A stretch of 64,000 bases of DNA. Source: Chloroflexota bacterium (GTDB lineage Bacteria > Chloroflexota > Limnocylindria > Limnocylindrales > CSP1-4). Below the pieces are notes generated by a model that had not been told where the DNA came from, did not search any database, and saw nothing but the letters and a program-made list of their open reading frames with translations. How positions within the stretch are numbered: the first letter of the stretch is position 1; each line of letters starts with the position of its first letter. Location of the stretch: the NCBI GenBank assembly GCA_034430475.1, contig DAOUEA010000055.1, positions 18,008 to 82,007 on the forward strand. Reading direction: 5' to 3'. Below are positions 421-45,068 of this stretch, one piece after another. Position numbers and translations under genes: made by a program.

Positions 421-1278
421 CTACCCGACTTGCCGCAGGTCCCAGCGTTCGTCGTGGACGGCCGATTCGCCCGGCCCGAGCGCCACGAGCGGCCCCAGCG
501 TCTCCAGTTCGATCGAACCCTGGTCGCAGTAGACCTCCACGTTGCAGCCCAGGTCGGGATGCCGGGCGTCTGGAGCCGGGTCGAATGAGATCGAGAGGAG
601 CACCGCTTCGCGCTCGTATGTCAGCCGGCCGCTGTGGCTCAGGCAGCCGAGCTTGACCATCGGCCCGGGCGTGGCCTTGACGGAGATGCCGGCATCGGCC
701 AGCGACAGCCGCTCGTCCTCCCACGATGAGTACGGCCAGAGCACCACTTGCCGATTCGGGACGAAGGAGTGCTCGGACACAGGAGGTGGAAGCTCCACCC
801 GCGCTACGCCGCCCAGCTTGAGCTGGGTCACCGGCCAGACGGCCAGGTCGAGGGTGCTGTCTCCCACGTTGCTCAGGACGTGACGCAGGTCGACGGCCGC
901 GCTCTCCGGGGCGAGCCGGACCTCGATCGTCTTGCGCAGGCCAATCTGCTCCTGCACCTGCCCGATGAGCCGAAGGCCCAGGCCGAAAGCCGCATCCGGG
1001 AGCGGCTCCAGGGTCAGCCCGGCCGAATCTGGGATGGAGCACTCCGCTCTCTCGGGCGCGAACCAGACCCGGTGGCCGCCCATCAGCTCGAACCGCCCGA
1101 AGGTCGTCTCCCAGCCGATCTCCGGGGTCTCGGCCAGGATGCTCTCGCCGCCGGCCAGCCCGAAGCGCACGATGCGCGGCCCGGCCTCCGCCAGGACTTC
1201 CAGCCAGCACCGGCCGTTGTCCAGGCGCCGCGTCGGGCGGCCGTGGAAGTCGCCCGAGGTTCCGGGCAAGCCGCTCAT
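421..1278 (-). CDS. DUF4380-like protein (probable galactose-mutarotase-like beta-sandwich)
   Basis: Recognised from WLEVLAEAGPRIVRF, GGHRVWFAPE and IELETLGPL; the start overlaps the GH94 stop (ATGA), indicating translational coupling. Confidence 0.6.
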   Translation of the reverse strand: MSGLPGTSGDFHGRPTRRLDNGRCWLEVLAEAGPRIVRFGLAGGESILAETPEIGWETTFGRFELMGGHRVWFAPERAECSIPDSAGLTLEPLPDAAFGLGLRLIGQVQEQIGLRKTIEVRLAPESAAVDLRHVLSNVGDSTLDLAVWPVTQLKLGGVARVELPPPVSEHSFVPNRQVVLWPYSSWEDERLSLADAGISVKATPGPMVKLGCLSHSGRLTYEREAVLLSISFDPAPDARHPDLGCNVEVYCDQGSIELETLGPLVALGPGESAVHDERWDLRQVG

Positions 1279-3674
1279 TTGATTGTGACGTCGACTTTGA
1301 CCGAGGCGGTCCCCGGCGCCGGGAGCGGCACCACGTCGCCATCCACCGGCCTGCCGTCGACGACGAGCGAGACGACGTTGCCGGGCCCCTCGCGACGCAC
1401 GGCGATCTCATAGGCCGTGCCACGGAACTCGCGGTGGGCCTTGAAGCCCTGCCAGCCGGACGGCATCGCCGGCGCCACTCGCAACCCTTCGTACGTGGGC
1501 CGGATGCCGAGGATCCACTGCGTGGCCGCGACGTAGGTCCAGGCGGCCGTGCCGGTCAGCCAGGCGTTGCGGCCCAGGCCGAAGGACGGGTGGGTCGGTC
1601 CGCAGATGTTCTGGCAGTAGGTGTAGGGCTCGGCCCTGTAGACGTCCGAGTCGGTGCGGGCCAGCGGCAGGATCTGGCGGTAGTAGCGGTAGGCGGTCTC
1701 GCCGTCGCCCAGCATCGCCGCGGCGGCAACGGACCAGGTGTTGGCGTGGCAGAAGATGCCGCCGTTCTCCTTGGCCCCGGGCACGTACGTCGATGTACCG
1801 CGGATGCGCTCGTCGGCGCCGTCGTAGGGCGGCCACATCAGGGCCAGCCCGAACCTGGTGTTCAGCTTCTCGTCGGCCGAGGCCATGGCCAGCGCGGCTC
1901 GCTCCGGCGGAGCCACTTCGCCCAGCACGGACCAGCTCTGGGGGATCAGGTCGATGGCCTGGTGCTCCGCGCCGGAGACGCCGAGCGGCTGCCCGTCGTC
2001 GTCGAAGGCGCGCTTGTACCAGGCCCCATCCCAGGCGTGCTCGTTGATGGCCCTGGCCATAGCGGCGTGAATGCCTTCGAAGCGCCCGGCCTCGGCCGGC
2101 CGGTCCAGCTTCGCGCTCAGGTCCCGCAGGTCCAGCATCGCCCGGCAGAACTGCATGGCCGTCCAGACGCTTTCGGCCTTGCCCGAGCCATGGTCGACGT
2201 TCATGGTGTCGTTCCAGTCGGAGAAGCCAGCGCGCGGCAGCCCGTGGGGCCCCAGGTTGTCGAGGGTGAAATCCACGGCCCGCAGCATGTGCTCCCAGAC
2301 GGTCTCCTCGGCATGGTCCACGTACTTGACCTTCTGCTCGAGGTAGCCGAAGTCGCCGGTCTCGCGCAGGTAGGCGCAGACCGAAAGGATCAGCCACAGG
2401 TGATCGTCGCTGAACCACTGGGGCCACCTCGGGAATTCGCCCGCCAGGCCCGGCCCGCCCTCGCCCGTGAGCGGGAAGAACTGGTGGTGGGTGTGCCCGT
2501 CGGCGAACTGCATCTCCCAGATTTGAGTCAGCATCCGCCGGGCGTGGTCCGGCACGGTGTGCATGGTGCCCAGCGTGTCCTGGCCGCTGTCGCGGGTACC
2601 CATGCCCCGGCCCATGCCGGTCTCGTAGCCGGACACGAAGCGCGACCAGTACAGGGTCGTGCGGCACTGGACCTGGTTCCAGAAGTTGAGCATGGCGTTG
2701 GTATCGGCGTCGGGCGTATCGACGCTGAAACGGCCCAGATAGGCCGTCCAGTCGTCGCGCAAAGCGTCGAACGCAGACGCCACTTCGGCATCGCTCGAGA
2801 ACCGTTTGACGACCCTGTCTATCTCGGCCGGGCGGACGGTGCAGCCGGCGATGTACACCAGCTGGCGCTCCTCGCCCGGGGCCAGCTCGATGTCGTGGGT
2901 CAACGAGCCGACGCTGTTGCCACGCGGCGCCGGGGCGTCGGCGGGGCTGCCTGACTCGACGACGATCGGGTTGGACAGGTCGCGGCCCCGGCCCACGAAG
3001 TCCTCCCGGACGCAGGTGTAGCCGGTCGGCTTGTGGCTCGAACCGAAGAAGTAGACCAGCGGATTGAACTTGGTCATCACTCGGATGACCCCGTCTCCGA
3101 ACTCGCTGTACTGGATGTGCTGCGCCCAGTCCAAGTTGGTGGCGTCGTTTTGGGCGTCGTACAGGCTGAACTCGAAGTAGCTGAAGGTGCGCAGGCGGCG
3201 GGGCGCCTTGCCCGTGTTGCGGACCTTCAGGACCCACAGCTCGCAGGGGGCCGGCTCGTCCACCGGGCTCAAGGGGACGAAGTACAGCATCTCGGCGTCG
3301 ATGCCGCGGTACGAGCTGGCGATGCGCGTGTAGGCGGTGCCGTGGCGGCATTCGTAGGCGTCCGGCCGGTGCCAGGTCGGCGATACCGTGGGGCTCCAGA
3401 ACTCACCCGTCTCCTGGTCGCGCAGGTAGACGTAGCGACCCGGCTGGTCGTCCGGGACGGCATTGTAGCGGTAGCGGCTGACGCGCCGGTTGCGTGGGTC
3501 CCTGTCGAACGAGAAGCCGCCGCCGGTGTTGGAGACGATGCCGCCATAGCGACCCTCGCCGATGTAGTTGAGCCACGGCGTAGGGGTATCCGGCCGGGTG
3601 ATCACGTACTCGCGCGCGGCCTCCTCGAAGTGGCCGTACGCGTTGGCGCCGACTCGCGCCTTGTCCTGGCTCAC
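1275..3674 (-). CDS. GH94 glycoside phosphorylase, divergent paralog, substrate uncertain
   Basis: YGHFEEAAREYVITRPDTPTPWLNY N-terminus, GRGMGTRDSGQD, catalytic SDWND, KENGGIFCHAN; GTG start after GGAGG. Confidence 0.9.
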   Translation of the reverse strand: MSQDKARVGANAYGHFEEAAREYVITRPDTPTPWLNYIGEGRYGGIVSNTGGGFSFDRDPRNRRVSRYRYNAVPDDQPGRYVYLRDQETGEFWSPTVSPTWHRPDAYECRHGTAYTRIASSYRGIDAEMLYFVPLSPVDEPAPCELWVLKVRNTGKAPRRLRTFSYFEFSLYDAQNDATNLDWAQHIQYSEFGDGVIRVMTKFNPLVYFFGSSHKPTGYTCVREDFVGRGRDLSNPIVVESGSPADAPAPRGNSVGSLTHDIELAPGEERQLVYIAGCTVRPAEIDRVVKRFSSDAEVASAFDALRDDWTAYLGRFSVDTPDADTNAMLNFWNQVQCRTTLYWSRFVSGYETGMGRGMGTRDSGQDTLGTMHTVPDHARRMLTQIWEMQFADGHTHHQFFPLTGEGGPGLAGEFPRWPQWFSDDHLWLILSVCAYLRETGDFGYLEQKVKYVDHAEETVWEHMLRAVDFTLDNLGPHGLPRAGFSDWNDTMNVDHGSGKAESVWTAMQFCRAMLDLRDLSAKLDRPAEAGRFEGIHAAMARAINEHAWDGAWYKRAFDDDGQPLGVSGAEHQAIDLIPQSWSVLGEVAPPERAALAMASADEKLNTRFGLALMWPPYDGADERIRGTSTYVPGAKENGGIFCHANTWSVAAAAMLGDGETAYRYYRQILPLARTDSDVYRAEPYTYCQNICGPTHPSFGLGRNAWLTGTAAWTYVAATQWILGIRPTYEGLRVAPAMPSGWQGFKAHREFRGTAYEIAVRREGPGNVVSLVVDGRPVDGDVVPLPAPGTASVKVDVTIK

Positions 3675-3759
3675 TATTGCGCCTCCGATACCAGCCCCCG
3701 CCGGTCGGACATCGACGCGACACGCTCCCGCCGGCCGGCATGCATTCCCTTCTCGCCTT

Positions 3760-6207
3760 CTAGTAGATGGCTTCGATCTCCATCGTCTGGCCGACCTTCG
3801 CGGGCAGCGGGGCCAGGTGGCCCTCGATCTCCTTGCCGTCGACGACCAGCCGAGTCACGCGCCCGGTCGAACCCTTGGGCTTGCGGACGGTGATGTCGTA
3901 GGTGGCCCCGCGGAAGTGGCGGGTGACCTTGAATTCACCCCAATCGGCCGGCAGGACGGGGTCGATGCGCAGCCCGTCGTGCTCGGCGCGGATGCCCAGG
4001 ATCCACTGGGTGATGGCCACGTAGTTCCAGGCCGCCGTGCCGGTCAGCCACGAGTTCTTGGCCTCGCCGTGAGTCGGGGCGTCCTTGCCGGCGATCATCT
4101 GGGCGTAGACATAGGGCTCGCAGCGATGGACCTCGGATATCTCCTCGCGCGCCGACGGGCACAGCCGCATGTAGTAGTCGAGCGCGGCTTCGCCGTCGCC
4201 GACGCGAGTCTCGGCGATCATGACCCAGGGGTTGGTGTGGCAGAAGACCCCGGCGTTCTCCTTGTAGCCCTCGGGGTAGGTGGAGATCTCGCCCAGCTCC
4301 GGGTAGTAGTGGCTGTAGGCCGGGTTGTTGACCACGATGCCGTGGGGCGTGGCCAATCGCTCCTTGACCGAGCGCAGAGCCTTGACGGCCAGCCCGTCCT
4401 GGAGGCCGATCCCAGCCGCGACGCAGATGCCCTGGGGCTCGATGAAGATCTGGCCCTCCTGGCACTCCTTCGAGCCGACGGGGTGGCCGAAGTAGTCGTA
4501 GGCCCGCCGGAACCACTCGCCGTCCCAGCCGGCCGTCTCGACGACCTGCATCATCGCGCCGACCGCTTCGAGGCAGCGCCGGCTCTCGGTCTGGTCGTGG
4601 CGCAGGGCCGCGATCTCGGCCATCTCGGTCGCAGCCAGGACGAACAGGCCGGCGATGAAGACCGACTCGGCGACGCCGCCCTCCTTGTTCTCGGTCGTCT
4701 GGAATGACTCGCCGGGCGTCTGCGAGAAGCAGTTGAGGTTCAGGCAGTCGTTCCAGTCGGCCCGCCCGATGAGCGGCAGCCCGTGCGGGCCGCGCCGGTC
4801 GAGGGTGTACTGGATCGAGCGCTGGAGGTGATCGTAGAGCGGCTTCTCGGTGCCGGTCTTGTTGTCGTACGGGACTGGCTCGTCGAGGATGGCCAGGTCG
4901 CCCGTCTCCTTGAGGTATGCCGCCACGCCCAGGACGAGCCAGGCCGGGTCGTCGTTGAAGCCCGTCCCGACGGAGTTGTTGCCGCGCTTCGTCAGCGGCT
5001 GGTACTGGTGGTAGGCGCCGCCGGTGGGGAGCTGCGTCGCGGCGATGTCGAGCAGCCGCCCGCGGGCCCGGGCCGGGACCATGTGGACGAAGCCGAGCAG
5101 GTCCTGGCTGGAGTCACGGAAGCCCATGCCGCGGCCGATGCCCGACTCGAACATCGAAGCCGAGCGGCTGATGTTGAAAGTCACCATGCACTGGTAGGCG
5201 TTCCAGATGTTGACCATGCGGTTGACGTGCTCGCTGCCGGTCTGGACCTCGACGATGTCCAGCAGCTTGCTCCAGTAGTCGCGCAGGTCCGTGAAGGCCT
5301 TCTCGACCTCGGCCGGTTGGAGGTAGCGGGCGATGACCGGCTGGCAGCGCTTCTTGTTGATCGTCTGGGAGCCCGGGGGATCGAACTTCTCGTCCTGGGG
5401 GTTCTCCTGGTAGCCGAGCAGGACGATCACCTCGCGGGTCTCGCCGGGCGCCAGCTCAAGCTTGACGTGGTGCGAGCCCATCGGCTGCCAGCCGTGGGCG
5501 ATCGAATCGGCCGTCTTCCCCTGTTCGACCACGATCGGCCTGTCCCAGCTGCGGTAGGGGCCCAGGAAGGCGTCGCGCTGCGTCTCGAAGCCGGCCGCCT
5601 TCTCCGAGCAGGCGAAGTAGGCGAAGTGGTCGCGCCGCTCGCGGTACTCGCTCTTGTGGTAGATGACGCCGTCCTCTACTTCCACCTGGCCGATGGAGTA
5701 GTTGCGCTGGAAGTTGGTGGCGTCGTCGTTGGCCTCCCAGAGGCAGAACTCTATGGAGCTGAAGAGGGAGATCCTGGCCTTCGCCTTGCGCTCGTTGGTG
5801 ACGCGAATGCGCCAGATCTCCAGGTTCTCGCCCACCGGCACGAAGTACAGCGTCTGGGCGGCGATGCCCTTGTAGCGCGAGCCGATGATCGAGTAGCCCA
5901 TGCCGTGACGGCAGGAATAGTCCTCCAGATCGCGCTGAGTGGGTTGCCAGCTGGGGCTCCAGAACTCGCCCGATCCGTCGTCGCGGAGGTAGACGTAGCG
6001 GCCGCCCAGGTCCAGCGGGGCGTTGTTGTAACGATAGCGACTGATGCGCCGCAATCGAGCGTCCCGATAGAACGAGTACCCACCGGCAGTGTTGGAGATG
6101 ATGCCGAAGTAGGCCTCGCTGCCCAGGTAGTTGATCCAGGGCAAGGGGGTGTCGGGGCGAGTTATGACGTACTCGCGACTCTCGTCGTCGAAGTGCCCGT
6201 AACGCAC
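3760..6207 (-). CDS. cbp: GH94 cellobiose phosphorylase
   Basis: MRYGHFDDESREYVI, GRGMGFRDSSQD, RADWNDCLNL, KENAGVFCHTNPW; start reassigned to GTG 6207 behind AAGGAG. Confidence 0.9.
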   Translation of the reverse strand: MRYGHFDDESREYVITRPDTPLPWINYLGSEAYFGIISNTAGGYSFYRDARLRRISRYRYNNAPLDLGGRYVYLRDDGSGEFWSPSWQPTQRDLEDYSCRHGMGYSIIGSRYKGIAAQTLYFVPVGENLEIWRIRVTNERKAKARISLFSSIEFCLWEANDDATNFQRNYSIGQVEVEDGVIYHKSEYRERRDHFAYFACSEKAAGFETQRDAFLGPYRSWDRPIVVEQGKTADSIAHGWQPMGSHHVKLELAPGETREVIVLLGYQENPQDEKFDPPGSQTINKKRCQPVIARYLQPAEVEKAFTDLRDYWSKLLDIVEVQTGSEHVNRMVNIWNAYQCMVTFNISRSASMFESGIGRGMGFRDSSQDLLGFVHMVPARARGRLLDIAATQLPTGGAYHQYQPLTKRGNNSVGTGFNDDPAWLVLGVAAYLKETGDLAILDEPVPYDNKTGTEKPLYDHLQRSIQYTLDRRGPHGLPLIGRADWNDCLNLNCFSQTPGESFQTTENKEGGVAESVFIAGLFVLAATEMAEIAALRHDQTESRRCLEAVGAMMQVVETAGWDGEWFRRAYDYFGHPVGSKECQEGQIFIEPQGICVAAGIGLQDGLAVKALRSVKERLATPHGIVVNNPAYSHYYPELGEISTYPEGYKENAGVFCHTNPWVMIAETRVGDGEAALDYYMRLCPSAREEISEVHRCEPYVYAQMIAGKDAPTHGEAKNSWLTGTAAWNYVAITQWILGIRAEHDGLRIDPVLPADWGEFKVTRHFRGATYDITVRKPKGSTGRVTRLVVDGKEIEGHLAPLPAKVGQTMEIEAIY

Positions 6208-6392
6208 GACTCTCCTTCGCGTATACCGATGCCACCGGCCGGCGACGGAAGCGGCCGGTTCTCCACTCAGGAACGGCGGGCGCCTTGGCAACCATGCGCC
6301 CGCGGCACATTATGGCCCGACGCTCACCCGCCCCGCAGGACGAGATGCCAAGCCGGCTGCTTCGGGCCCACACCGGGTAGTACAGTGCGGCC

Positions 6393-7433
6393 ATGGTCAG
6401 ACCAGGCGGCAAGCCCGCCGCGAGACGCGCTCCACCGCCGACACCGCTCGGGGCCGAGCCCGCTCCACTGCCGACAGAGCCCGCTGCGCCCGAGGTGCCC
6501 GCTCAGCCCGAGCTGCCCGCCACGCCCGCGGGTGACCGGCTCTACAGGGCGATCGTCGACCAGATGGCCGACGGCGTCTACCTCGTCGACCCGGACAGGA
6601 CCATCAAGTACTGGAGCCCCGGGGCGGAGCGCATCTCAGGCCACAGCGCGCGTGAAGTCGTGGGCCGGCGGTGCCTGGACAACATCCTGGACCACGTGGA
6701 TGAGAAGGGCCGCTCGCTGTGCCATGCCGCCTGCCCGCTGGCAGCCACGATTGGCGACGGCCGGCCGCGCGAGGCGACGATCTGGCTCCGCCACGGCGAT
6801 GGCCACCGCAAGCCGGTCAGGGTCAGGGCCACCCCGCTGCTCGACGAGACGGGCAGGATCGTGGGCGGCATCGAGTACTTCGCCGACGCGACGGCGACCC
6901 TCGCCGCGGCCGAAGACGCCGATCGGGCGAGGCGCGAAGCTCTGACCGACCAGCTGACCGGGCTGCCGAACCGGCGCATGTTCGACCTGGCGCTGGCCGG
7001 ACGATTGGAGAATCTGCGCCGCTACGGCTGGCCCTTCGGCCTGCTGATGGTCGACATCGACCACTTCAAGACGATCAACGACGAGCACGGGCACGCCCTT
7101 GGCGACGCGGCCCTGGCCGGAGTGGCCGCCACCCTGACCGGAGCTATTCGTTCCGGCGACATGGTGGCCCGCTGGGGCGGCGAGGAGTTCGCCGTCCTTG
7201 TCGAGGCCTCGGACGAAGAGAGATTGTGCGAGGCCGGCGAGAGGATCCGGGTGCTGGTGCAGCGCTCCGAGGCCCGTTTCGAGGGAGCCAGAGTGCCGCT
7301 CAGGGTTTCCGTGGGCGGGACGATGGCCGTCCCGGCAGACACGCCGGAGTCCATCTTCGCCCGTGCCGACGGGGCCCTCTACCGCGCCAAGAACGGCGGC
7401 CGCAACAGGACGGAGATCGCCGGCCAGGGCTAG
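6393..7433 (+). CDS. PAS-domain diguanylate cyclase
   Basis: PAS region, then DQLTGLPNRR, DIDHFKTIND, I-site RSGD five residues before GGEEF. Confidence 0.93.
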   Translation: MVRPGGKPAARRAPPPTPLGAEPAPLPTEPAAPEVPAQPELPATPAGDRLYRAIVDQMADGVYLVDPDRTIKYWSPGAERISGHSAREVVGRRCLDNILDHVDEKGRSLCHAACPLAATIGDGRPREATIWLRHGDGHRKPVRVRATPLLDETGRIVGGIEYFADATATLAAAEDADRARREALTDQLTGLPNRRMFDLALAGRLENLRRYGWPFGLLMVDIDHFKTINDEHGHALGDAALAGVAATLTGAIRSGDMVARWGGEEFAVLVEASDEERLCEAGERIRVLVQRSEARFEGARVPLRVSVGGTMAVPADTPESIFARADGALYRAKNGGRNRTEIAGQG

Positions 7434-8514: not shown

Positions 8515-8589
8515 TGGTGAGCCCGCAGAGATTCGAACTCTGAACCTAGGGATTAAGAGTCCCCCGCTCTACCGTTGAGCTACGGGCCC
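8515..8589 (-). tRNA. tRNA-Lys (CTT)
   Basis: Reverse complement GGGCCCGTAGCTCAACGGTAGAGC...CTCTTAA...GTTCGAATC...CACCA gives a cloverleaf with anticodon CTT and encoded CCA. Confidence 0.96.
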
Positions 8590-13188: not shown

Positions 13189-14172
13189 CTACTCCCGCTC
13201 GGCCGAGACCATCAGGGCCAGAAGGCGGTCGGCGGCCGCGTACGGGTCCAGCTCGTGGGCGGCCACGGCCCGCAGCAGCTCGGCGGCCACCGGCGCCGCT
13301 TCGATCGTGCGGGCCCGCTCGCGGAGGCGGTCCGCCAGCACGGCCCAGACCTGAGCCTCGGCCCGGGTAAGGCGGTTGGCGTCGCCGGCCGCCCCGGCGG
13401 CTCCGCGGTGGCGGTCGATAGCGGCCAGCAGATCGGCTACTCCTTCTCCGGTCGCGGCGGTGGTCAGCAGGACCTCCGGCCGCTTGGGGGCAGGTCCACC
13501 CGGCCGCGCCTCGCGCGGCGCGTCGGCCAGCATCGCCCGCAGCTGGCTCGCCGTCCGCTGCGCCCCTGGGCGATCGCCCTTGTTGACAACGACGATGTCG
13601 GCGACCTCCAGCAAGCCGGCCTTGATGGCCTGGATCTCGTCGCCCATCTCCGGAGCCTCCACGACGACGGTGGTGTCGGCCGTGGCGGCGACCTCGACCT
13701 CGCTCTGGCCCGTGCCTACGGTCTCGATCAGGACGACGTCGAAGCCGACTGCGTCGAAGACCGCCGCGGCCGCGGTCGTGGCGTAGGCCAGCCCGCCGGA
13801 GTGGCCGCGAGAGGCCATGGAGCGGATGAAGACCCCGTCGTCTCCGGCGTAGGCCTGCATCCGGACCCGGTCGCCCAGGACGGCGCCGCCGGTGATGGGG
13901 CTGGAGGGGTCCACGGCCACGACCGCCACGGGTCGTCCGGAGCGGCGCAACTCCCCGATGAGCGCCGCCACCAGGGTGCTCTTGCCCGCCCCCGGGGGCC
14001 CCGTCACGCCGATCAGCTGAGCACGGCCGGCCCTGGGGTAGAGCTGCCGCAGCGCAGCTTCGGCCAGCGGGGTGCGGTTCTCGACGGCGGTCAGGAGACG
14101 GGCCAGGGCGCGACGATCGCCGCTCAGGGCCGCCTCGCTCAGCTCCCCCGCTCGCTCCACGGCCGTGCCCAC
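13189..14172 (-). CDS. meaB: Methylmalonyl-CoA mutase-associated GTPase MeaB/ArgK
   Basis: GPPGAGKST Walker A, VDPSSP..GGA.LGDR.RM, ETVGTGQSE, NKGD. Confidence 0.93.
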   Translation of the reverse strand: MGTAVERAGELSEAALSGDRRALARLLTAVENRTPLAEAALRQLYPRAGRAQLIGVTGPPGAGKSTLVAALIGELRRSGRPVAVVAVDPSSPITGGAVLGDRVRMQAYAGDDGVFIRSMASRGHSGGLAYATTAAAAVFDAVGFDVVLIETVGTGQSEVEVAATADTTVVVEAPEMGDEIQAIKAGLLEVADIVVVNKGDRPGAQRTASQLRAMLADAPREARPGGPAPKRPEVLLTTAATGEGVADLLAAIDRHRGAAGAAGDANRLTRAEAQVWAVLADRLRERARTIEAAPVAAELLRAVAAHELDPYAAADRLLALMVSAERE

Positions 14173-14178
14173 TCCGCC

Positions 14179-14583
14179 CTAGTCCCGCGGCCGGGCGTTG
14201 GCGCGCACAAACTCGGCGACCTGGGCGATGGTGGTTCCCGGGCCGAAGACGGCGGTCACTCCTGCCTTCCTGAGTGAGGGAACGTCCTCGTCCGGGATGA
14301 TGCCCCCGGCCACGACCAGCACGTCGCTCATCCCCTTCTCCTTGAGCAGGCCGCAAACCTTGGGCAGCAGGGTCTGATGGGCGCCCGACAGGATGGACAG
14401 CCCGACCACGTCCACGTCCTCCTGCAGGGCGGCCGTGACGATCATCTCGGGTGTCTGGCGCAGGCCGGTGTACACCACCTCGAAGCCTTCATCACGGAGG
14501 CCGCGGGCGAGCACCTTGGCGCCGCGGTCGTGCCCGTCGAGACCCGGCTTGGCAATGAGCACCTTGATCGGTCGGTCGGTCAT
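14179..14583 (-). CDS. Cobalamin-binding domain protein (C-terminal subunit of a split acyl-CoA mutase)
   Basis: [12 protein letters not shown] (DxHxxG), [14 protein letters not shown]; start reassigned to ATG 14583. Confidence 0.92.
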
Positions 14584-14608
14584 GCCCGCATCATAACGGG
14601 CTGCCCAC

Positions 14609-14818
14609 CTACAGCGGCCAGCGCGGCGAGTCATTCTCCTCAGCCGCCACGTGGATGCGCACCCCGCGCCCGCGCCCGCACAGCTGACAGGCCGGGGTGA
14701 GGATCTGGTGGTGCGCACTTCCGCAGTAGATGGGCGGCACGGCCTGGAAGGCGTGAGGAAGCCGCGGGTCGGGGACCCACGGCTTCGTTTCGGATCGTCG
14801 GTTCGGCGTTGGGTGCAT
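14609..14818 (-). CDS. 69-aa putative zinc-binding microprotein, copy 3 of the SPRW family
   Basis: ATG with GGAGGG 7 nt upstream; PHAFQ...[13 protein letters not shown]...NDSPRWPL*. Confidence 0.75.
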
Positions 14819-14835
14819 CGAGCGACCCTCCGGGG

Positions 14836-15018
14836 CTAGAAGCCCCAGCGAGGGGACTCGTCGACCTCCACGCCCTGATGGACGGGATCGTTCTTGCTAC
14901 GAGCGCAAACCGCGCAGGGGCCGCCCGGCACGGCTTCCTGGAAGAGATGCCGTTCTTTCGGATCGGGCCCCTGAGCCTGCTTGTTGCCCTCGTTCCTGCG
15001 GGCGTTACGGAAGTTCAT
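14836..15018 (-). CDS. 60-aa putative zinc-binding microprotein, copy 2 of the SPRW family
   Basis: ATG 15018 after GGGGAG; RHLFQE...CAVCARSKNDPVH...DESPRWGF*. Confidence 0.75.
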   Translation of the reverse strand: MNFRNARRNEGNKQAQGPDPKERHLFQEAVPGGPCAVCARSKNDPVHQGVEVDESPRWGF

Positions 15019-15128
15019 GGTCTCCCCGTTCTGGATCTCGAGCGCCGCATGCCGGTCTTCGGCGCCTCGGTAATCCAGACGAGATGGACCGCTCGGTTGT
15101 TCGATTGTCCGGCTCGCCCACGCCCGGC

Positions 15129-15380
15129 CTAGAGGCCCCAGCGCGGCGATTCGAAGTCGGCCTCGATCTCGCCCTCGACATGAATGCGATCCTCGCGGGG
15201 CTTCCTGCAAAGGCCGCACATGAGGGCCCGACTGGCCGGCACGGGGGGCGGCGTGTAGGGCCCGCCCATGTGCGACGTGAAGGGCTCGGTGACCGGAGGG
15301 ATCTCCATCTCCTGGAAGACGTGTGGCCGATTCGCGGCCGGAGCCGCGATGTCGCGCCTGGATTCGATCTGCTGGACCAT
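15129..15380 (-). CDS. 83-aa putative zinc-binding microprotein, copy 1 of the SPRW family
   Basis: ATG 15380; PHVFQE...CGLCRKPREDRIH...FESPRWGL*. Confidence 0.75.
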   Translation of the reverse strand: MVQQIESRRDIAAPAANRPHVFQEMEIPPVTEPFTSHMGGPYTPPPVPASRALMCGLCRKPREDRIHVEGEIEADFESPRWGL

Positions 15381-15400
15381 GGCATTCCACTTTCCGCTTG

Positions 15401-15422
15401 TCTCTCGATAACCCTCGAGAGA
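15401..15422. promoter_or_regulatory. Perfect 8-6-8 inverted repeat upstream of the microprotein array
   Basis: TCTCTCGA-taaccc-TCGAGAGA, 20 nt upstream of ATG 15380. Confidence 0.45.
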
Positions 15423-15535
15423 ACGCGTTAATGGTCGCTCAATCGTCGCCCGCCCCTGTGCCAGGCCCGGCTCTGTTCCGCGCTGAGGATCATTCGCAGC
15501 CGGGCTCCGGCATCCCGCCTTCCGGATCCAGCCGG

Positions 15536-16222
15536 TCAGGCCTGCCTGTCTCCCCGCTCGAGGTGAGCCATGAACTCGTCGCGGGTGCGCTGGTTGGTTC
15601 GGAAGCAGCCCAGGACGCTGCTGGTGACCATCGTCGCGCCGCGCTTCTGAATGCCGCGCATGGCCATGCACAGATGCTGGGCTTCGATGACCACGGCCAC
15701 GCCCTGGGGATCGAGCCGCTCCTGGAGGAAGTCGGCGACCTGCTGGGTCATGCGCTCCTGGACCTGCAGCCGCCGGGCGTACATCTCCACGACCCGCGGA
15801 ATCTTGGACAGGCCCACGACCTTCCCTCGCGGGACATAGCCCACCGAGGCCGTGCCGAAGAAGGGCAGCATGTGGTGCTCGCACAGCGAGTAGAAGGGGA
15901 TGTTCTTGACCACGACCATCTCGCTGTAGCCGACATCGAAGATGGCGCCGTTGATCAGCTTGTCCGGGTCGACCAGGTAGCCGCAGGTCAGCTCCAGCCA
16001 CATGCGGTGCATCCGCTCAGGCGTGCGCAGGAGCCCCTCGCGATCGGGGTCCTCGCCGATCTCGGTCAGGATCCGGCGCACGGCCTCCTCGATCCCACCC
16101 GCCGGGCGGCTCTCAGCGGGCGCGCCCGCGCCTGTGTCGCCGTGCTCGATCTGCTCCACGATCTGGCGCACGCGGGCTTCCAGGTCGTCGCAATCTCCCT
16201 GACCGCGCTTGTCATCCGGCAT
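15536..16222 (-). CDS. folE: GTP cyclohydrolase I
   Basis: [45 protein letters not shown]; ATG 16222 after GAAGGAG. Confidence 0.95.
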
Positions 16223-16292
16223 GACTGCTCTCCTTCGCGGCCATCGTAGCGCCAGCGCTGCCAACGCGCGGCCGGGGCCGTAGCATAGGCGC

Positions 16293-16706
16293 ATGGTGAA
16301 GCACCGCCGGGGCAGCGTCAGCTGGCGAGCCCGCGAGACGGCAGACCGCGCCGCCTTCCACGATTCCGTGGAGCGGGCCCTTGCGGCCGTGCCCCCGCCA
16401 TTCTCGCGCGCCCTGGACGAGGTAGCGATCGTGGTGGAGGACCGCCCCAGCGCCGAGCAGCGCCGCTCGGTCGGCCTGCGGCCCGGCGACGACCTGTACG
16501 GGCTGTTCGAGGGCGTGCCGCGAACCGAATGGGCGGCCGACTGGGCTCCCTTCCCGAACAAGATCTCGCTCTTCCGAATCGCCCTCGAGGAGGATTTCCC
16601 GAACGAGGCCGCCCTGGAGAAGCAGATACGAGTGACGGTCCTGCACGAACTGGCCCACTACCTGGGCATCGACGACGACCGCCTCCACGAGCTGGGCATG
16701 GGGTAG
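16293..16706 (+). CDS. Minimal zincin-like metallopeptidase family protein
   Basis: [26 protein letters not shown] (HExxH). Confidence 0.85.
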
Positions 16707-16716
16707 GAGCTTCGCT

Positions 16717-17739
16717 CTAGCCGACCAGCGGCGGGATGTCGAGCGGAGCCGCGCCCGCCAACAGCTCGCCGAGCCGGGCCGGGTCTACGTTGCCGCCGCT
16801 GAGCACCACGCACACCCGCTCCCCGTCGCGGATCGGAACATCGCCGAACAGCACCGCCGCCAGGGCGGCCGCACCAGCCGGCTCCACGAGCTGCTTCATC
16901 CGCTCCAGGGCGAAGCGCACCCCGGCCAGGATCGTGGCGTCGTCGATCAGCAGCACGCCGTCCAGGTAGCGATGGGCCATGGCCAGGGTCCACTCCCCGG
17001 CGAACGGCGAGCCCAGGCCGTCGGCGACAGAGACGGGCTGGATCGTGACCGGCTTGCCCGCCTTCAAGGCCAGCGTCATCGAGTTGGAGGTCACCGGCTC
17101 CACGCCGTAGACGCGGATCTCGGGCCTGGTCTCCTTGAGCGCGGCAGCCGTCCCGGTGCACAGCGCTCCACCGCCGATGCCCGCCACCACCACGTCCACG
17201 TCCGGCAGATCGTCCAGGATCTCCAGGCCGATGGTCCCCTGCCCGGCAATGATGGCCGGGTCGTCGAAGGGAGGAACGAACGCCAGGCCCCGCTCGGCCT
17301 GGATCTCGTCCATGCGGGCCCAGGTCTCCCCGACGTGCTGGCCGAAGAGGATCACTTCAGCGCCGTAGCCACGGCAGGCCTCGACCTTGGAGCGCACGGC
17401 GCCCGCCGGCATCATGACCACGGCATGCGCCCCGGCCTCGTGAGCGGCCAGCGCCACCCCCTGGGCATGATTGCCCGCCGAGAGGGTGATCACCCCCGCA
17501 GCCCGCTCGTCCGCCGTCAGGGCCTCCATCTTGTTGAGCGCGCCGCGGATCTTGAAGGCGCCTGTCCTCTGCAGGTTCTCCGCCTTGGCGTAGACGCGCC
17601 CGTCGGCGGCGGCGATCCCGCGCGCCGCGAGGACGCGGCCGGCCGTCGATGACGACAGAATTGGCGTGCGGTCGATCCGCCCTTCCAGTACGCCTCGGGC
17701 TTCATGGAACCGCTGCAGGGGAACGATGCGTTCTGACAT
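16717..17739 (-). CDS. PLP-dependent threonine/serine dehydratase family, no ACT domain
   Basis: KAENLQRTGAFKIRGA, SAGNHAQG, IGGGAL, EPAGAAALAA, LSGGN; start ATG 17739. Confidence 0.9.
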   Translation of the reverse strand: MSERIVPLQRFHEARGVLEGRIDRTPILSSSTAGRVLAARGIAAADGRVYAKAENLQRTGAFKIRGALNKMEALTADERAAGVITLSAGNHAQGVALAAHEAGAHAVVMMPAGAVRSKVEACRGYGAEVILFGQHVGETWARMDEIQAERGLAFVPPFDDPAIIAGQGTIGLEILDDLPDVDVVVAGIGGGALCTGTAAALKETRPEIRVYGVEPVTSNSMTLALKAGKPVTIQPVSVADGLGSPFAGEWTLAMAHRYLDGVLLIDDATILAGVRFALERMKQLVEPAGAAALAAVLFGDVPIRDGERVCVVLSGGNVDPARLGELLAGAAPLDIPPLVG

Positions 17740-39697: not shown

Positions 39698-40693
39698 CTA
39701 CTGCTGAGGCTTGCTCCGGGGCTTCCTCTTGGGCTTCTCGGCGGGCGCCTCAGGTGCCGGCGGCGGGGCAACCGGCGGGGCGGCAGGCGGCTGAGCCTGC
39801 GGCGGGTAGCCCGGATAGCCTGGATAGCCACCGTAGCCCGGGTAGGCGGACGGCGGGTAGCCCGGAGCCTGAGGCGGCGGGGTCCCGGCCGGCTGCGGAG
39901 GCCAGGCCGGAGCCTGAGGCGGGGTCCCGGCCGGCTGCGGAGGCCAGGCCGGCGCGGCCCCGGCGCCCGGGTACTGCGCGTAGGCGCTGTACTGGACCGG
40001 ACCGAGGACGATGGAGCCGGCCACCTTGTCATGCCAGCCTTGCTTCATCTTGTCGATGCCGGTCACGACCACCAGCAGGACCATCCACAGCAGAGGGACG
40101 TACTGGAGAAGGGTGGACCCACCTCCGGGCCCGAAACTCGCCCCCGCTCCGTAGCTGCTCTGGGACAGCCAGTCGCTCGTGGGTGTCTTGGCTACCCAGT
40201 CCAGCATGAAGACAAGGCTCAGGGCGCCGACGACCTCGGCCACGCCGACCATGACGAACCACCGCACGAGCGCCCGGTCGAGGCGAAGGTTGCCGCCGTT
40301 CGACGCATCGGCCACGCGCAGGCCGAGGAGCTTCTGGGCAGGCGACCCGCCCCAGGCCATCCAGGATCCGATGAAGTAGAGGGCCATCAAGCCGACGTAC
40401 AGGCAGGCCACCATCACCAGGCGTCCCATCTCGACGTCCAGAAGCGGTGCCGTGACACCGTCAAACGGGTTGTTGGCAGCGTTCCTGTCGATCTGGTCGA
40501 CGGCCTGCTGGTTCAGATGCACCGCACCGGATGCGACAACAGCCACGAACCCGAAGATGCCCACCGTGATGCTGAGGAAGATGTAGTCCAGGATGAAGGC
40601 CCCGATGCGGCGGCCCATGCTGGCTATCGCCATCCCCTCTGGGATCTTGACCGAAGGATCGACGGCCGGCGCCGCGGGCGTCCATCCGCTCAT
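39698..40693 (-). CDS. RDD family protein with Pro-rich C-terminal tail
   Basis: RRIGAFILD, KLLGLRV, QGWHDKVAGSIV; tail contains two copies of WPPQPAGTPP. Confidence 0.85.
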   Translation of the reverse strand: MSGWTPAAPAVDPSVKIPEGMAIASMGRRIGAFILDYIFLSITVGIFGFVAVVASGAVHLNQQAVDQIDRNAANNPFDGVTAPLLDVEMGRLVMVACLYVGLMALYFIGSWMAWGGSPAQKLLGLRVADASNGGNLRLDRALVRWFVMVGVAEVVGALSLVFMLDWVAKTPTSDWLSQSSYGAGASFGPGGGSTLLQYVPLLWMVLLVVVTGIDKMKQGWHDKVAGSIVLGPVQYSAYAQYPGAGAAPAWPPQPAGTPPQAPAWPPQPAGTPPPQAPGYPPSAYPGYGGYPGYPGYPPQAQPPAAPPVAPPPAPEAPAEKPKRKPRSKPQQ

Positions 40694-40717
40694 CTGCCCA
40701 CCTCCGTTGCTTAGTTC

Positions 40718-40793
40718 TGGCGTCCCCGGCGGGACTCGAACCCACGACCTTCCGCTTAGAAGGCGGCTGCTCTATCCGCTGAGCTACGGGGAC
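40718..40793 (-). tRNA. tRNA-Arg (TCT)
   Basis: Reverse complement GTCCCCGTAGCTCAGCGGATAGAGC...CTTCTAA...GGTTCGAGTCC...GGGGACGCCA. Confidence 0.96.
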
Positions 40794-40964
40794 ACCGGAT
40801 TGGCACGAATGCCGTACGTAGGGTAGCGCCGGACGCCGCGCGGGGCCAGCCCGCGCGGCCGCAAGAGTTCTTTTGTCCCATCGTTGCGGCCTCCCGGCAG
40901 TGCTAGACTCGGGGGCCTTCGGAGTCAACGGCCGCCGCGCGCGGCCGGCCACAGGAGACCTGGC

Positions 40965-42476
40965 TTGCCGTCGCTTCCGCTCGAGACCGATCCGGCACCG
41001 CCGACGCCATCGGTCGAGCGAACCGGCGCCCGAACGGATGCGAGCGCCGTGCCGGCCCCGGCCGCCCCTCGAACCCCGGCGGCGGGGGCTGACGGTCAGC
41101 TGGCCCTGGCTCTACAGGTACCCGTAGCCCTGCCCCACCTGGCGATCCCCGCCGAGTGGAAGGACCAGCAGCGGCTGTGGGGCCACAGCTTCCACCCCAT
41201 GTGCTCGTATCTGGCCAGCTTCCCGGCCGGCCTGGCCCATGCCTTCATCGCCCGCTACACCCGCCCCGGCGACGTCGTGATGGACCCGTTCAGCGGCAGG
41301 GGCACGACGCCGCTGCAGGCATGCGCCGAGGGCCGGATAGGCGCCGGCAACGACCTGAACCCGTTCGCCCACATCCTGACCGCAGCCAAGGTGGACCCAC
41401 CCAGCAAGGCCGAGGTGAAGACCCGCCTCACCGCCCTGCGCCTGGCCTGGACCGCCGTCGCAGGGGAGTGGCTGGAAATGGCCCGCGCCGCCATCGCCGA
41501 TCCCGGCTCCCCCACCGTGCTCGTCCCCGCCTCGGGCAGCAGGCCTGTGGGCGGCCCCGAGAAACACCGGCCGGCCGCCCCCATCCCCGCGGAGGTCTGC
41601 CTGGCGTTCCACCCCAGCACGCTGGCCCAGGTCCTCTATCTCCGGGCCGGGCTGGACCCCGACGACCGAACAGATCGCTTCATCCTGGCCACGCTGACCG
41701 GCATCCTGCACGGCAAGAGCGGCAGCTACCTCTCGGCGGTCATGCCCAACACGTTCAGCATGGCCCCGCGCTACGTCCGCGATTTCGTGGCCCGCACCGG
41801 GTTCCGCTCGCCCGAACGCGACGCCTTCAATCTTCTCAACGGCAAGGTGCGCCGCCTCTACCGCCAGCCCGTCCCGACGACGCGGGGCATGGCCCTGCTC
41901 GGCGACGCGCGCGACTCCGGAGTCCGTTTCCGGGAGGCGCTGCGGGCCCGCGGCCTGCCCGAGCGAGCTCGTCTGGTGGTCACCTCGCCGCCCTACCTGC
42001 GCGTGGTGAAGTACGGCTACTACAACTGGCTGCGGCTGTGGCTGCTCGGCTACGAGGCCGCGGCGATCGACGACCTGCTGGACGACGCCCACCACCGCGA
42101 TGCCTACCTGGTCTTCATGCGCGAGGTCCTGCGCGGTCTGCGGACCGCCCTTGCGGACGACGCCGTGGTGGCCGTGGTCATCGGCGACGTGGAGATGGAT
42201 CGCGGCCGGCCCGCGCGGGGCGGCATCGGCCTGGCCGAGGCGGTCTGGGAGGCGGCCGCCGCGCCGGAGGGCTACCGGCTGGCCGGCCTGGCCCTGGATG
42301 ACATCCTGGCCGGGCGCAAGATGACCAAGCTCTGGGGCGGCGAGGCCGGCCGGGCCACGAAGCTGGACCGCATCCTGGTCCTGGGAGCCACCGAGGCAGG
42401 CCGGCGGAGAGCGATCAGCGGCGCCTCGCTGCCGATCGACTGGACCTGGCCGCCACAGAGGCCGCGGGCGCTGTAG
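40965..42476 (+). CDS. Amino-DNA methyltransferase (SPPY, likely N4-cytosine), orphan
   Basis: Motif I DPFSGRGTT near the N-terminus and motif IV VTSPPY later; TTG 7 nt after AGGAG. Confidence 0.8.
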   Translation: MPSLPLETDPAPPTPSVERTGARTDASAVPAPAAPRTPAAGADGQLALALQVPVALPHLAIPAEWKDQQRLWGHSFHPMCSYLASFPAGLAHAFIARYTRPGDVVMDPFSGRGTTPLQACAEGRIGAGNDLNPFAHILTAAKVDPPSKAEVKTRLTALRLAWTAVAGEWLEMARAAIADPGSPTVLVPASGSRPVGGPEKHRPAAPIPAEVCLAFHPSTLAQVLYLRAGLDPDDRTDRFILATLTGILHGKSGSYLSAVMPNTFSMAPRYVRDFVARTGFRSPERDAFNLLNGKVRRLYRQPVPTTRGMALLGDARDSGVRFREALRARGLPERARLVVTSPPYLRVVKYGYYNWLRLWLLGYEAAAIDDLLDDAHHRDAYLVFMREVLRGLRTALADDAVVAVVIGDVEMDRGRPARGGIGLAEAVWEAAAAPEGYRLAGLALDDILAGRKMTKLWGGEAGRATKLDRILVLGATEAGRRRAISGASLPIDWTWPPQRPRAL

Positions 42477-42519
42477 GGCCCATCCCGGCGCAGCCCCACC
42501 CAACCGCTACAATCGCGCC

Positions 42520-42747
42520 ATGAAGCCAATGTACGCCGAGAGCGACCTGGCGGCGATGGATCCGCTCGTCCTGATGAAGAACCTGGACCACGTGCGCATG
42601 ACCAGCCGGCGGCTCAGCTACATCCTCCAGCAGCAGGTCCACCTCTACACGCCGGAGGCGACCCAGCTCCGTCAGCGCATCGACGCCTACGTGGCGGCCG
42701 AGCAGCAAATCGAGGCCGAGATGGCGCGCCGGCGGCTGCGCGCCTGA
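42520..42747 (+). CDS. 75-aa hypothetical helical protein
   Basis: Coding-like codon use; TACAAT, 6 nt, ATG. Confidence 0.75.
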   Translation: MKPMYAESDLAAMDPLVLMKNLDHVRMTSRRLSYILQQQVHLYTPEATQLRQRIDAYVAAEQQIEAEMARRRLRA

Positions 42748-42836
42748 CCTTTCGAGCGCCTGACAGCCCGCTTCCTCTGACTCCCGCCTGGCCCGAGCCT
42801 TCGTTGGCTCCCCGCTGCCCCGAAAACCCGGGGGCG

Positions 42837-43214
42837 TCAGTTGGCGACCGCCAGCAGCGGAGGGTCCTCCTGCTCGTCCACCGGCTCCGGGGCAACCGCG
42901 ATCGTCACGGCCGCCGGCCGCAGCGGTAGCGGAGCCATCACGCCGCGCATGAGACGCTTCCGCCGCTCCGCCTCCTCAGTGGCTATCTGAGCCACCAGGC
43001 CGGCCAGACGTGGCATCTCCGCCAGCCCGAACTCGATTCCGTGCTCCGCCAGCTCGATGAAGCCCCAGCCTCGAAACAGCCCACGGCTGGCTACCAAGCA
43101 CATCTCGTCGTACAGCTCGGGCCAGCCCACGTGCCTGCGCCTGCGGCAGAAGCGGACGAACTCCAGAGCGATCCCATTGGTGGCCCGTTCCTCCTGACGC
43201 CTGCGCGAATCCAT
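42837..43214 (-). CDS. Hypothetical protein
   Basis: ATG 43214 after GGGAG; globular-looking core EFVRFCRRRR..WPELYDEMCLVASRGLFRGWG. Confidence 0.7.
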   Translation of the reverse strand: MDSRRRQEERATNGIALEFVRFCRRRRHVGWPELYDEMCLVASRGLFRGWGFIELAEHGIEFGLAEMPRLAGLVAQIATEEAERRKRLMRGVMAPLPLRPAAVTIAVAPEPVDEQEDPPLLAVAN

Positions 43215-43325
43215 CGATCTACCCGCTCCCATTCCACCCGGGCCAACCCAAGCCCTCCAGACGACCGCGGGTGTGACGGCCGGGCCTGGGCCATTGGGCC
43301 TCCGCGCATCTCACCACCGCGGCAG

Positions 43326-43405
43326 GCATGGCCGCCATGCTAGGGGTGCCCCCCGTGTCAAAAAAGGGGGTTTCTCCACCAACTAGTCCACCAAGTTTTC
43401 CACAG
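43326..43405 (-). promoter_or_regulatory. Promoter-like region with three 12-bp-phased TCCAC repeats
   Basis: Perfect TTGACA on the minus strand (43356-43361); TCCAC at 43375, 43387 and 43399; GCATGG-N3-CCATGC palindrome at 43326-43340. Confidence 0.5.
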
Positions 43406-43559
43406 AACAGCCGTTCGGCGATCGTCTGTTCGAGACCGTCCGCGGGGCCGCCAGAAGGGCCCACGAGCGGGCTTCCAGAGGCCGATCGGCGGTCCGCGGC
43501 GGGCGCGAGAAGGGCGGAGGCCTTGCGACCTCCGCCCGCAAGATCTCCCACTCTCGGGA

Positions 43560-44183: not shown

Positions 44184-44316
44184 GCCACCTCCTGCCACGC
44201 CGGGGTCGAGCGGCGTTCCGCCACTCGCATCCCCACCACAGGAATGGTACAGCCGGCGGAATCGCAAGGGCGGCGGCTTCGAGCCTCCGCCCTTGACAAC
44301 CTGGAAGCGCGATCTG

Positions 44317-45038: not shown

Positions 45039-45068
45039 GAGAGCGGAGACCTCGCGGCCTCCGCTCTC
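45039..45068. terminator. Hairpin downstream of the shortest RDD gene
   Basis: gagagcggag / ctccgctctc 10-bp stem. Confidence 0.45.

Follow-up and report, generated by a model that had tools for sequence, protein, structure and literature searches.

In the 64-kb window (the whole stretch of 64,000 nucleotides of Chloroflexota contig DAOUEA010000055.1 that was analysed), three tandem minus-strand genes between folE and a gene for a B12-binding domain encode microproteins of 83, 60 and 69 amino acids (aa). These belong to a conserved family in which a putative metal knuckle is followed by an acidic arm and a tryptophan close to the free C-terminus. With a probability of about 0.4, we read the knuckle as a scaffold that presents the tethered acidic Trp tail for non-covalent docking to a partner. 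The family is a clean example of unannotated microproteins: it is conserved, under purifying selection, present in 1–7 tandem copies and without a match in Pfam, NCBIfam or the PDB. Its combination of a minimal metal knuckle, an acidic arm and a Trp at the free end is shared only with the LysW-type carrier proteins. If the tail docks, it would constitute a compact, testable module for enzyme regulation. If it is used covalently, it would extend carrier-protein chemistry past the terminal-Glu rule.

Copy 1 (type 1) occupies positions 15129–15380, copy 2 (type 2, the smallest member) 14836–15018 and copy 3 (type 3) 14609–14818, all on the minus strand and in agreement with the initial annotation. 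As noted there, two of the genes were hidden: the C-terminal portions of two mechanical open reading frames (ORFs), of 290 and 184 aa, correspond to copies 1 and 2. Since these two genes sat inside longer spurious ORFs, the gene calls were corrected. Copy 1 consists of the motif PHVFQE, a Pro-rich insert of 32 residues, the knuckle segment CGLCRKPREDRIH, the acidic arm VEGEIEADF and the tail ESPRWGL. In copy 2, RHLFQE, an insert of eight residues, CAVCARSKNDPVH, QGVEVD and ESPRWGF follow in the same order, and copy 3 has an insert of 19 residues. The CxxC-x8-H knuckles span C55–H67 in copy 1 (15180–15218), C35–H47 in copy 2 (14878–14916) and C44–H56 in copy 3 (14651–14689), with H20, H24 and H22, respectively, as putative fourth ligands. 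The C-terminal tails are encoded at 15132–15152 (ESPRWGL), 14839–14859 (ESPRWGF) and 14612–14632 (DSPRWPL). Alignment of the three copies confirms the shared H-x-F-Q, CxxC-x8-H, acidic linker and SPRW elements of the initial annotation, and identifies H20, F22, Q23, C55, C58, H67 and S78-P79-R80-W81 (copy 1 numbering) as invariant.

Judged by codon usage, orthologue divergence, independent gene calls and profile recovery, copies 1–3 are genuine coding genes. The GC content at third codon positions (GC3) is 0.87, 0.79 and 0.84 for copies 1, 2 and 3, respectively, compared to 0.55–0.71 in the overlapping alternative frames and 0.89–0.90 in folE, the B12-domain gene and meaB. Pairwise Nei-Gojobori comparison of orthologues gives ratios of nonsynonymous to synonymous substitution rates (dN/dS) of 0.18–0.65 at dS values of about 0.7–1.3. 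By type, the ratios are 0.32–0.44 (type 1), 0.18–0.65 (type 2) and 0.30–0.43 (type 3). Gene calls made by JGI on independent contigs yield the same products of 83, 60 and 69 aa. A protein identical to that of copy 1 (P0001) is present on at least 22 contigs. Orthologues of copy 2 (P0005–P0007, P0010 and P0012) are 62–82% identical to it, and those of copy 3 comprise P0008, P0009, P0014 and the copies in loci L001 and L082.

When the six-frame ORFs of the window (1050 in all) were searched with a hidden Markov model (HMM) built exclusively from 19 distant members of other loci, copy 1 was recovered with E = 2.3e-15 and copy 3 with E = 3.3e-6; copy 2 was missed. The HMM of the whole family, which includes the window sequences, matches copy 2 with E = 4.6e-14. 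No further family copy is present in the 64-kb window. Copies 2 and 3 are preceded by the ribosome-binding sites (RBSs) that had been ascribed to them, namely GGGGAG at 15022–15027, 3 nucleotides (nt) 5' of the ATG of copy 2, and GGAGGG at 14826–14831, 7 nt 5' of the ATG of copy 3 (both Shine-Dalgarno-like and on the minus strand). Sites of the GGAG type also precede all five type 1 copies of locus L001. Copy 1 has a weak purine-rich stretch and nothing stronger. The upstream reading '..GETM' is kept across the type 2 loci, and thus the GGNGAR-ACN-ATG context of the copy 2 start is conserved.

Relatives were collected by three routes. A word-indexed protein search returned 14 of them, and an exhaustive HMMER search of 1.84 billion representatives gave 47 matches at E ≤ 1e-3, about 43 of which are 39–123 aa long and have the same architecture. 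The large matches P0039, P0042, P0051 and P0052, which are biased or repetitive in sequence and carry no domain that would inform on their function, were rejected as members. A metagenome scan added 48 loci. The profile search for homologues, copy number and neighbours that the initial annotation had proposed thus yields about 100 sequences, precisely 103 distinct complete ones, from about 50 metagenomic loci. Where a database name exists, it is 'hypothetical protein'.

The 103 sequences share a common layout: H-x-[FY], usually preceded by a D/P-K-x-P context, an insert of 8–39 residues, C-x2-C-x8-H, a linker of 8–13 residues and a C-terminus of the form W-[GP]-x(0-1). The linker is net-acidic (mean net charge -2.7) and varies in length and composition. 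In alignments of 48–76 sequences both Cys and the Trp are invariant, while both His and the Phe are conserved to at least 90%. The Trp is preceded by a conserved (E/D)-S-P-x and lies one or two residues from the C-terminus in 101 of the 103 sequences. It is followed by Gly and the stop in 43 sequences, by Gly and one of Leu, Phe or Met in 44, and by Pro and one further residue in about ten. The paralogous proteins have no signal peptide and are therefore probably cytoplasmic.

The two halves of the proteins evolve differently. In the L001 array of seven genes, the five type 1 paralogues differ in their C-terminal halves by pN of 0.01–0.23 and pS of 0.13–0.63 (proportions of nonsynonymous and synonymous differences). 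The pN/pS ratio between paralogues is about 0.03–0.4 in the C-terminal half and about 0.4–0.9 in the N-terminal half. Constraint thus falls on the knuckle, arm and tail as a unit, whereas the insert can vary freely, which bears out the initial suggestion of selection on the metal motif and the tail. A few members depart from the layout at the metal site. One copy in L142 has Pro in place of the x8 His and carries a His directly after the CxxC (CGICH..LP). In P0056/L143 the same His is replaced by Pro, no replacement His is found and the protein looks degenerate. A type 1 copy in L092 (1418–1576) has no in-frame N-terminal half, and in P0055 (123 aa) the CxxC-knuckle segment is internally duplicated (..DVPDDCELCSK.. 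occurs twice).

None of the libraries searched contains the family, and it has no name. Copies 1–3 match no family in Pfam, NCBIfam, PADLOC or PHROGs, and 48 aligned members match none in Pfam or NCBIfam. A sequence-profile search of the PDB gave chance matches only (E > 0.3), and a full-text literature search with the tail motifs found nothing relevant. The initial annotation had recognized no named family either, and the library, PDB, Foldseek and literature searches agree with it.

The family does not fit the definitions of three known groups. Of the 48 members, one matches a model of the DksA/TraR C4 zinc-finger regulators (NF008243, E = 0.03) and the rest do not; the second CxxC of these regulators is absent. 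The zinc-binding anti-sigma factors (ZAS; zf-HC2) carry the motif H-x3-C-x2-C, whereas the conserved His of the family lies 10–41 residues before the CxxC, not three, and Pfam gives no match. In L001 and L082, genes for extracytoplasmic-function (ECF) sigma factors lie at a distance of 2–4 kb rather than adjacent, and the surroundings of the window copies contain none. The anti-sigma-like role once suggested for the copies is thus not supported. Ubiquitin-like and sulfur-carrier tags (ThiS/MoaD/Pup) give no profile match, the predicted fold is not a beta-grasp and the tail ends in W-G, not G-G. No ThiF, PafA or JAB genes were found near family genes in the annotated neighbourhoods or in the window.

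AlphaFold2 (AF2) models of copies 1 and 2 would both fit a small hairpin with a knuckle and a helix, followed by a flexible tail. Both were calculated with the family alignment. The model of copy 1 contains strands at residues 24–27 and 50–55 and a helix at residues 65–77. Its predicted local distance difference test score (pLDDT) is 82–87 over residues 51–70 and has a mean of 54 in the last block. The model of copy 2 has a bridge joining residues 28 and 35, a helix at 45–53 and a mean pLDDT of 56 in the last block. In such a fold the His of H-x-F, the CxxC and the His at the helix start could share one metal, a putative ligand geometry read from the topology of the models and residue conservation.

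The proposed mechanism starts from this site. Each protein would bind a single metal ion, most likely zinc, through the strand His of P-H-x-F, the CxxC knuckle and the helix-start His, so that the knuckle would form a compact folded handle. From it, a net-acidic, flexible arm of 8–13 residues would lead to the tail (E/D)-S-P-x-W-(G/P), which ends with at most one further hydrophobic residue at the free C-terminus. The acidic arm and the C-terminal Trp would insert into a pocket of a partner protein. The microprotein would then be a regulatory or adaptor subunit. The data show that the genes are coding, that the family exists and that it has the conservation pattern, the variation in copy number and the lack of known relatives described here; that a metal is bound, how the protein folds, that the tail docks and what any partner might be are inferred. 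The tail is read as a tethered recognition peptide for four reasons: the Trp has a strict position, the (E/D)-S-P-x before it is kept, the length of the acidic arm varies, and AF2 confidence in the tail is low. A comparable tail is that of the single-stranded-DNA-binding protein SSB (DDDIPF type), which is acidic and flexible, has an aromatic or hydrophobic free end and docks partners. Unlike the family, SSB has an oligonucleotide-binding (OB) fold as scaffold, its tail differs from (E/D)SPxW(G/P) and the two are not homologous. The putative knuckle of one His, two Cys and a second His presenting a C-terminal peptide, as originally proposed, is consistent with ligand conservation, the AF2 models and the Trp position.

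Several observations weigh against a docking tail. The mean pLDDT of the models is moderate (69 for copy 1 and 63 for copy 2), and Foldseek found no match for either model in the PDB. The tail rule is broken in P0002, which ends in DSPRRPQ with Arg in place of Trp, and in the type 3 copy of L138 (4088–4507), which reads through to ..WPVQMSGPL. These two tails suggest that type 3 may be less constrained in some strains. In a clustering of neighbouring ORFs around 30 loci, most of them without folE and four with folE and no B12-domain gene, neither a PDZ, TPR or ATP-grasp protein nor any other tail-binding protein recurs beside the family genes. At least 13 loci are without both folE and the B12-domain gene. 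Where folE is adjacent, this is not independent evidence for a functional link, because the adjacency goes back essentially to one insertion event (see below). Finally, the invariant Trp could be a structural core residue instead.

This last possibility, in which the Trp packs on the knuckle and the protein is a self-contained metal mini-domain, is unlikely. Such a domain might bind nucleic acids, its N-terminus being basic and its C-terminus acidic, or serve as a metal buffer. Small zinc fingers usually need conserved core aromatics, and among the aromatics of the family F22 and W81 alone are invariant or nearly so. The N-terminal segments are indeed basic, for example MNFRNARRNEGNK in copy 2. 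On the other hand, the arm between the knuckle His and the Trp consists of 8–13 low-complexity acidic residues, AF2 leaves the tail unpacked (pLDDT 54–56 in the last block), and a strict distance of the Trp from the free end is hard to explain by core packing alone. A precedent for small metal domains of this kind exists in archaea, where zinc-finger microproteins of diverse roles are common. The C(P)XCG proteins of Haloferax volcanii (for example HVO_0758 and HVO_2753) have one domain of fewer than 70–90 aa, and many such proteins have unknown or regulatory roles and are often missed in annotation (PMC11241148, PMC10716476). Like the family, whose metal site is putative, they are small, single-domain and built round one metal site. 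Unlike the family, they have two C(P)XCG knuckles with four Cys and no conserved C-terminal Trp tail. No sequence relation between the two was detected.

For a docking tail, the genomic context offers FolE as the first candidate partner, since the three genes probably share a transcript with folE, the B12-domain gene and meaB. The gene folE (GTP cyclohydrolase I, PF01227; 15536–16222, minus strand) lies directly upstream of copy 1 in the same orientation. The B12-domain gene (PF02310; 14179–14583, minus strand) starts 25 nt past the stop of copy 3, and its 134-aa product reads as the small-subunit type of methylmalonyl-CoA mutase. The last gene of the apparent operon is meaB, encoding a G3E GTPase of the MeaB/ArgK type (PF03308; 13189–14172, minus strand). 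The gaps are 155 nt between folE and copy 1, 110 nt between copies 1 and 2, 17 nt between copies 2 and 3 and 25 nt between copy 3 and the B12-domain gene. No terminator-like or sigma-70-like promoter site was found over positions 14000–16800, which include the stretch between folE and meaB. Given this and the gaps of 17–25 nt ahead of the B12-domain gene, the simplest reading is that folE through meaB is probably one transcript. An Rfam scan detected no riboswitch or other RNA element near copies 1–3 and only three tRNAs in the window. In the spacer before copy 2 (15013–15135, minus strand) a possible hairpin pairs the GGGGAGACC RBS region; its energy is ordinary (z = -1.05). The spacer between folE and copy 1 folds with z = -2.4, and neither of the two longer spacers is compelling.

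The family is well defined and, as far as its members can be placed, confined to one uncultured class. The B12-domain gene is 73–87% identical to genes of metagenome-assembled genomes of Candidatus Limnocylindria/Limnocylindrales. The family contigs have a GC content of 66–70%. On the contig of P0053 (L095), the most divergent member looked at, the genes for glucose-6-phosphate dehydrogenase and 6-phosphogluconate dehydrogenase are 77–79% identical to those of the window. Because of these similarities, all placeable members and loci are assigned to Candidatus Limnocylindria (Chloroflexota). This uncultured class is abundant in freshwater, peat and soil, and very few of its genes have been characterised. 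None of the 80 GTDB representative loci retrieved through the B12-domain gene contains a member by six-frame HMM search and regular expression, and a scan of GTDB genomes with the type 2 pattern matched 47 stretches, none of which was confirmed.

Single genes prevail (39 of the 51 non-redundant loci), and the longer arrays comprise three genes in the window and in L138, four in L135 and seven in L001 (five of type 1 and one each of types 2 and 3). Types 1, 2 and 3 each have their own orthologues on other contigs and keep the order type 1-2-3, as expected from the old duplications that had been postulated. In 24 of the 51 loci folE is directly upstream on the same strand, and two more are technical misses. 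Among the folE-upstream loci, the B12-domain gene also follows downstream in 16 and is absent there in four. In 13 of the 51 loci, 900 nt or more of upstream sequence are available and contain no folE.

In a neighbour-joining tree of FolE, nearly all family-bearing loci fall into one clade, in which two loci without the family are nested, and the other Limnocylindria clades contain no family-bearing locus. In L002, a close relative without the family, folE and the B12-domain gene are 48 nt apart. Since the family loci form one FolE clade and relatives of the L002 type lack the family, the array is best read as a single ancient insertion into a conserved folE-B12-meaB operon. Tandem duplication into the three types, further amplification, occasional loss and relocation are best read as later steps. 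The tempting functional link to folE and B12 is mostly historical. Relocated members are still conserved, and therefore this link is unproven.

The microproteins are unlikely to be FolE-specific accessories, a bacterial counterpart of feedback-regulatory or metallochaperone subunits that would attach to GTP cyclohydrolase IA and adjust how active it is or how it is loaded with zinc. The adjacency in the 24 loci named above speaks for such a role, as do the four loci that keep folE without the B12-domain gene, the reverse being found in no locus with readable upstream sequence. The mtrAB system of B. subtilis, a small regulatory gene behind folE, is a precedent. The zinc-ligand motifs CEHH and C mark the window FolE as the Zn-dependent IA type, and FolE-IA is a weak point under zinc limitation for which Bacillus has a dedicated chaperone (bioRxiv 10.1101/594382, PMC10882993). 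However, the adjacency amounts to one insertion in one FolE clade, the L002-type relatives manage without a microprotein, and at least 13 loci have a conserved member with no folE nearby. A copy number of 1–7 is unlike that of a subunit with fixed stoichiometry. Furthermore, visual inspection revealed no Zur-like or other metal-regulator palindrome in the folE promoter region. No specific partner of the kinds suggested in the initial annotation is thus supported, as no gene recurs beyond folE, whose position is largely inherited from the one insertion.

The promoter region of folE is shared with the divergent gene Zincin_1 (16223–16292, with equivalents in about 20 loci). It contains two conserved elements, CCTATGCTACGGCCC at the start of Zincin_1 and GCGTAGGAT followed by GAAGGAG just before folE, which are probably promoter and ribosome-binding elements.

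The closest known design to the family is that of LysW/ArgW (PF21344; PDB entries 3WWL and 5K2M), which was absent from the candidates of the initial annotation. In LysW, a zinc knuckle and an acidic arm precede the C-terminal EDWGE; the pathway enzymes recognize this tail, and its terminal Glu carries the cargo (PMC10433800). Both share a CxxCG knuckle, about 20–24 residues that include the acidic arm, and W-G near the free C-terminus, and the sizes are close (53–60 aa for LysW/ArgW, 60–85 aa for the family). The T. thermophilus LysW sequence used was verified against PDB entry 3WWL. Alignment of the family with two LysW sequences by hhalign gives a probability of 30% (P = 5.5e-4) and with a 30-sequence LysW profile 18% (P = 1.3e-3), with CxxCG, arm and WG aligned colinearly. 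The score of 21.1 exceeds those of all 300 column-shuffled controls (mean 8.6, maximum 19.2). The resemblance is real and colinear, but as a borderline similarity it is too weak for a claim of homology. The family is best described as a new version of the small zinc-finger, LysW-like carrier design.

The differences concern the features that define LysW. Its metal ligands are three or four Cys from two CxxC pairs (C5, C8, C25 and C28 are invariant), whereas the family has a single CxxC and two His (H...CxxC...H), with P-H-x-F and the insert of 8–39 residues in the position of the N-terminal LysW knuckle. A Glu follows WG in 29 of 30 LysW sequences and in none of the 103 family sequences, in which nothing, Leu, Phe or Met follows. 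At E ≤ 1, neither PF21344 nor an NCBIfam LysW model matches any of the 48 members, while all of the 120 LysW homologues listed carry PF21344. The annotated flanks of seven different loci and the 64-kb window contain no genes for an ATP-grasp enzyme (LysX/ArgX) or for LysZ/Y/J/K. Because the LysW-defining features fail, non-covalent docking of the tail is favoured over a covalent role.

A covalent carrier or tag would be LysW-like (an amino-group carrier protein, AmCP), ubiquitin-like or of the PEARL type, and the carboxylate of the C-terminal Gly, or of the residue after it, would be activated to carry a small molecule or to be ligated. We consider this unlikely. The colinear knuckle, arm and WG and the borderline profile similarity above 300 shuffles agree with such a role. 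So do the 43 of 103 sequences that end exactly in WG, together with the 44 that carry one extra hydrophobic residue, which recall the precursors of ubiquitin-like proteins, in which trimming exposes a terminal Gly. Arrays of up to seven tandem copies would suit a stoichiometric reagent. Against these stand the missing terminal Glu of LysW chemistry, the lack of a PF21344 or NCBIfam LysW match, an hhalign probability of 18–30%, and the absence of ATP-grasp (LysX/RimK), E1-like, LanB/PEARL and JAB genes from the annotated neighbourhoods and the 64-kb window.

A more specific form of the carrier idea takes the family as a diverged offshoot or a convergent analogue of LysW. The swinging arm would present a W-G(-X) end that is loaded via its alpha-carboxylate or ligated to targets, a new carrier or tagging chemistry of Limnocylindria in which the paralogues would serve different enzymes or cargoes. 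This is improbable to a slightly higher degree than a covalent role in general.

A ribosomally synthesized peptide precursor, also suggested initially, is very unlikely. In this case the C-terminal Trp peptide would be modified, for example by ComX-like prenylation, and released, and the knuckle would be the leader. The tandem small genes of L001 have near-identical C-terminal segments, as such precursors might. ComX precursors are about 55 aa long and carry a short C-terminal peptide with a conserved modified Trp a few residues from the end (PMC5331326). The likeness lies in a small protein whose functional element, as proposed for the family, is a short Trp-bearing C-terminal peptide. Unlike the family, ComX needs an adjacent ComQ and ComP/ComA and has no metal knuckle. 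The loci examined contain no comQ or comP/comA genes, nor do the family genes adjoin a gene for a ComQ-like prenyltransferase, a C39 peptidase or a dedicated exporter, so that the neighbourhoods lend the precursor no enzyme support. Moreover, a leader would not usually contain a folded metal knuckle such as that predicted for the conserved part, and neither a cleavage motif nor a signal peptide is present.

That the ORFs are untranslated chance frames in a GC-rich intergenic insertion is extremely improbable. High-GC DNA does open long ORFs in every frame, but the GC3 signal is frame-specific, dN/dS is below 1 at saturated dS, the RBSs are conserved, and about 100 distinct homologues keep the invariant Cys, Cys and Trp, also after relocation.

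Apart from folE, the B12-domain gene and meaB, the neighbour clustering revealed only lineage-specific synteny and a single recurrent neighbour, a DinB_2-like gene (labelled from sequence alone) that directly flanks the family gene in two locus pairs. It is located at 2048–2443 (132 aa) in L102/L103, and at 6255–6809 in L116 and 5863–6390 in L117 (about 180 aa). Transposases of the IS110 family adjoin family genes in two relocated or rearranged loci of different context, L088 (11268–12314) and L091 (1204–2250); in L091 the transposase occupies the expected position of the B12-domain gene.

In L095 (8001–8669), and also in L096, P0053 with the tail ..EPPVWG is encoded between a glyoxalase-family gene and a gene for a 114-aa zf-UBP protein. 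The zf-UBP domain binds free C-terminal tails in eukaryotes. It was rejected as the partner, being found beside P0053 in L095/L096 only and absent from the window and all other loci.

Loci L082/L083 contain three family genes and one unrelated zinc-ribbon gene. The latter is an 86-aa ORF with two CxxC pairs (9374–9634 in L082), zinc-ribbon-like, between folE and the family array. The slot after folE seems to collect small metal-finger genes.

The remaining genes of the window have housekeeping functions: glutamate synthase, lipoyl synthase, the 6-phosphogluconate and glucose-6-phosphate dehydrogenases, an amino-acid ABC transporter and RDD proteins, together with GH94 phosphorylases, a GGDEF protein and a large PAS histidine kinase. 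None of the genes of the 64-kb window encodes a peptide-modifying enzyme, an ATP-grasp enzyme or an E1-like protein. The only radical-SAM gene is that of lipoyl synthase (53020–54072), about 38 kb away from the array. Two tandem GH94 genes of the cellobiose/cellodextrin phosphorylase type occupy positions 1278–6309, and a PAS-GGDEF gene adjoins them at 6381–7430. A minus-strand tRNA (8518–8589) overlaps the listed TTG start (8575) of a 1529-aa hybrid histidine kinase ORF with PAS/GAF domains, and the true start is therefore probably further downstream. The region 39701–46686 contains RDD-family paralogues at 39701–40771, 43563–44441 and 44320–44946, amid which lie tRNAs at 40721–40793 and 45610–45683 and a partial DNA-methylase match at 40827–42473. 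This region may be the remnant of an integrated element.

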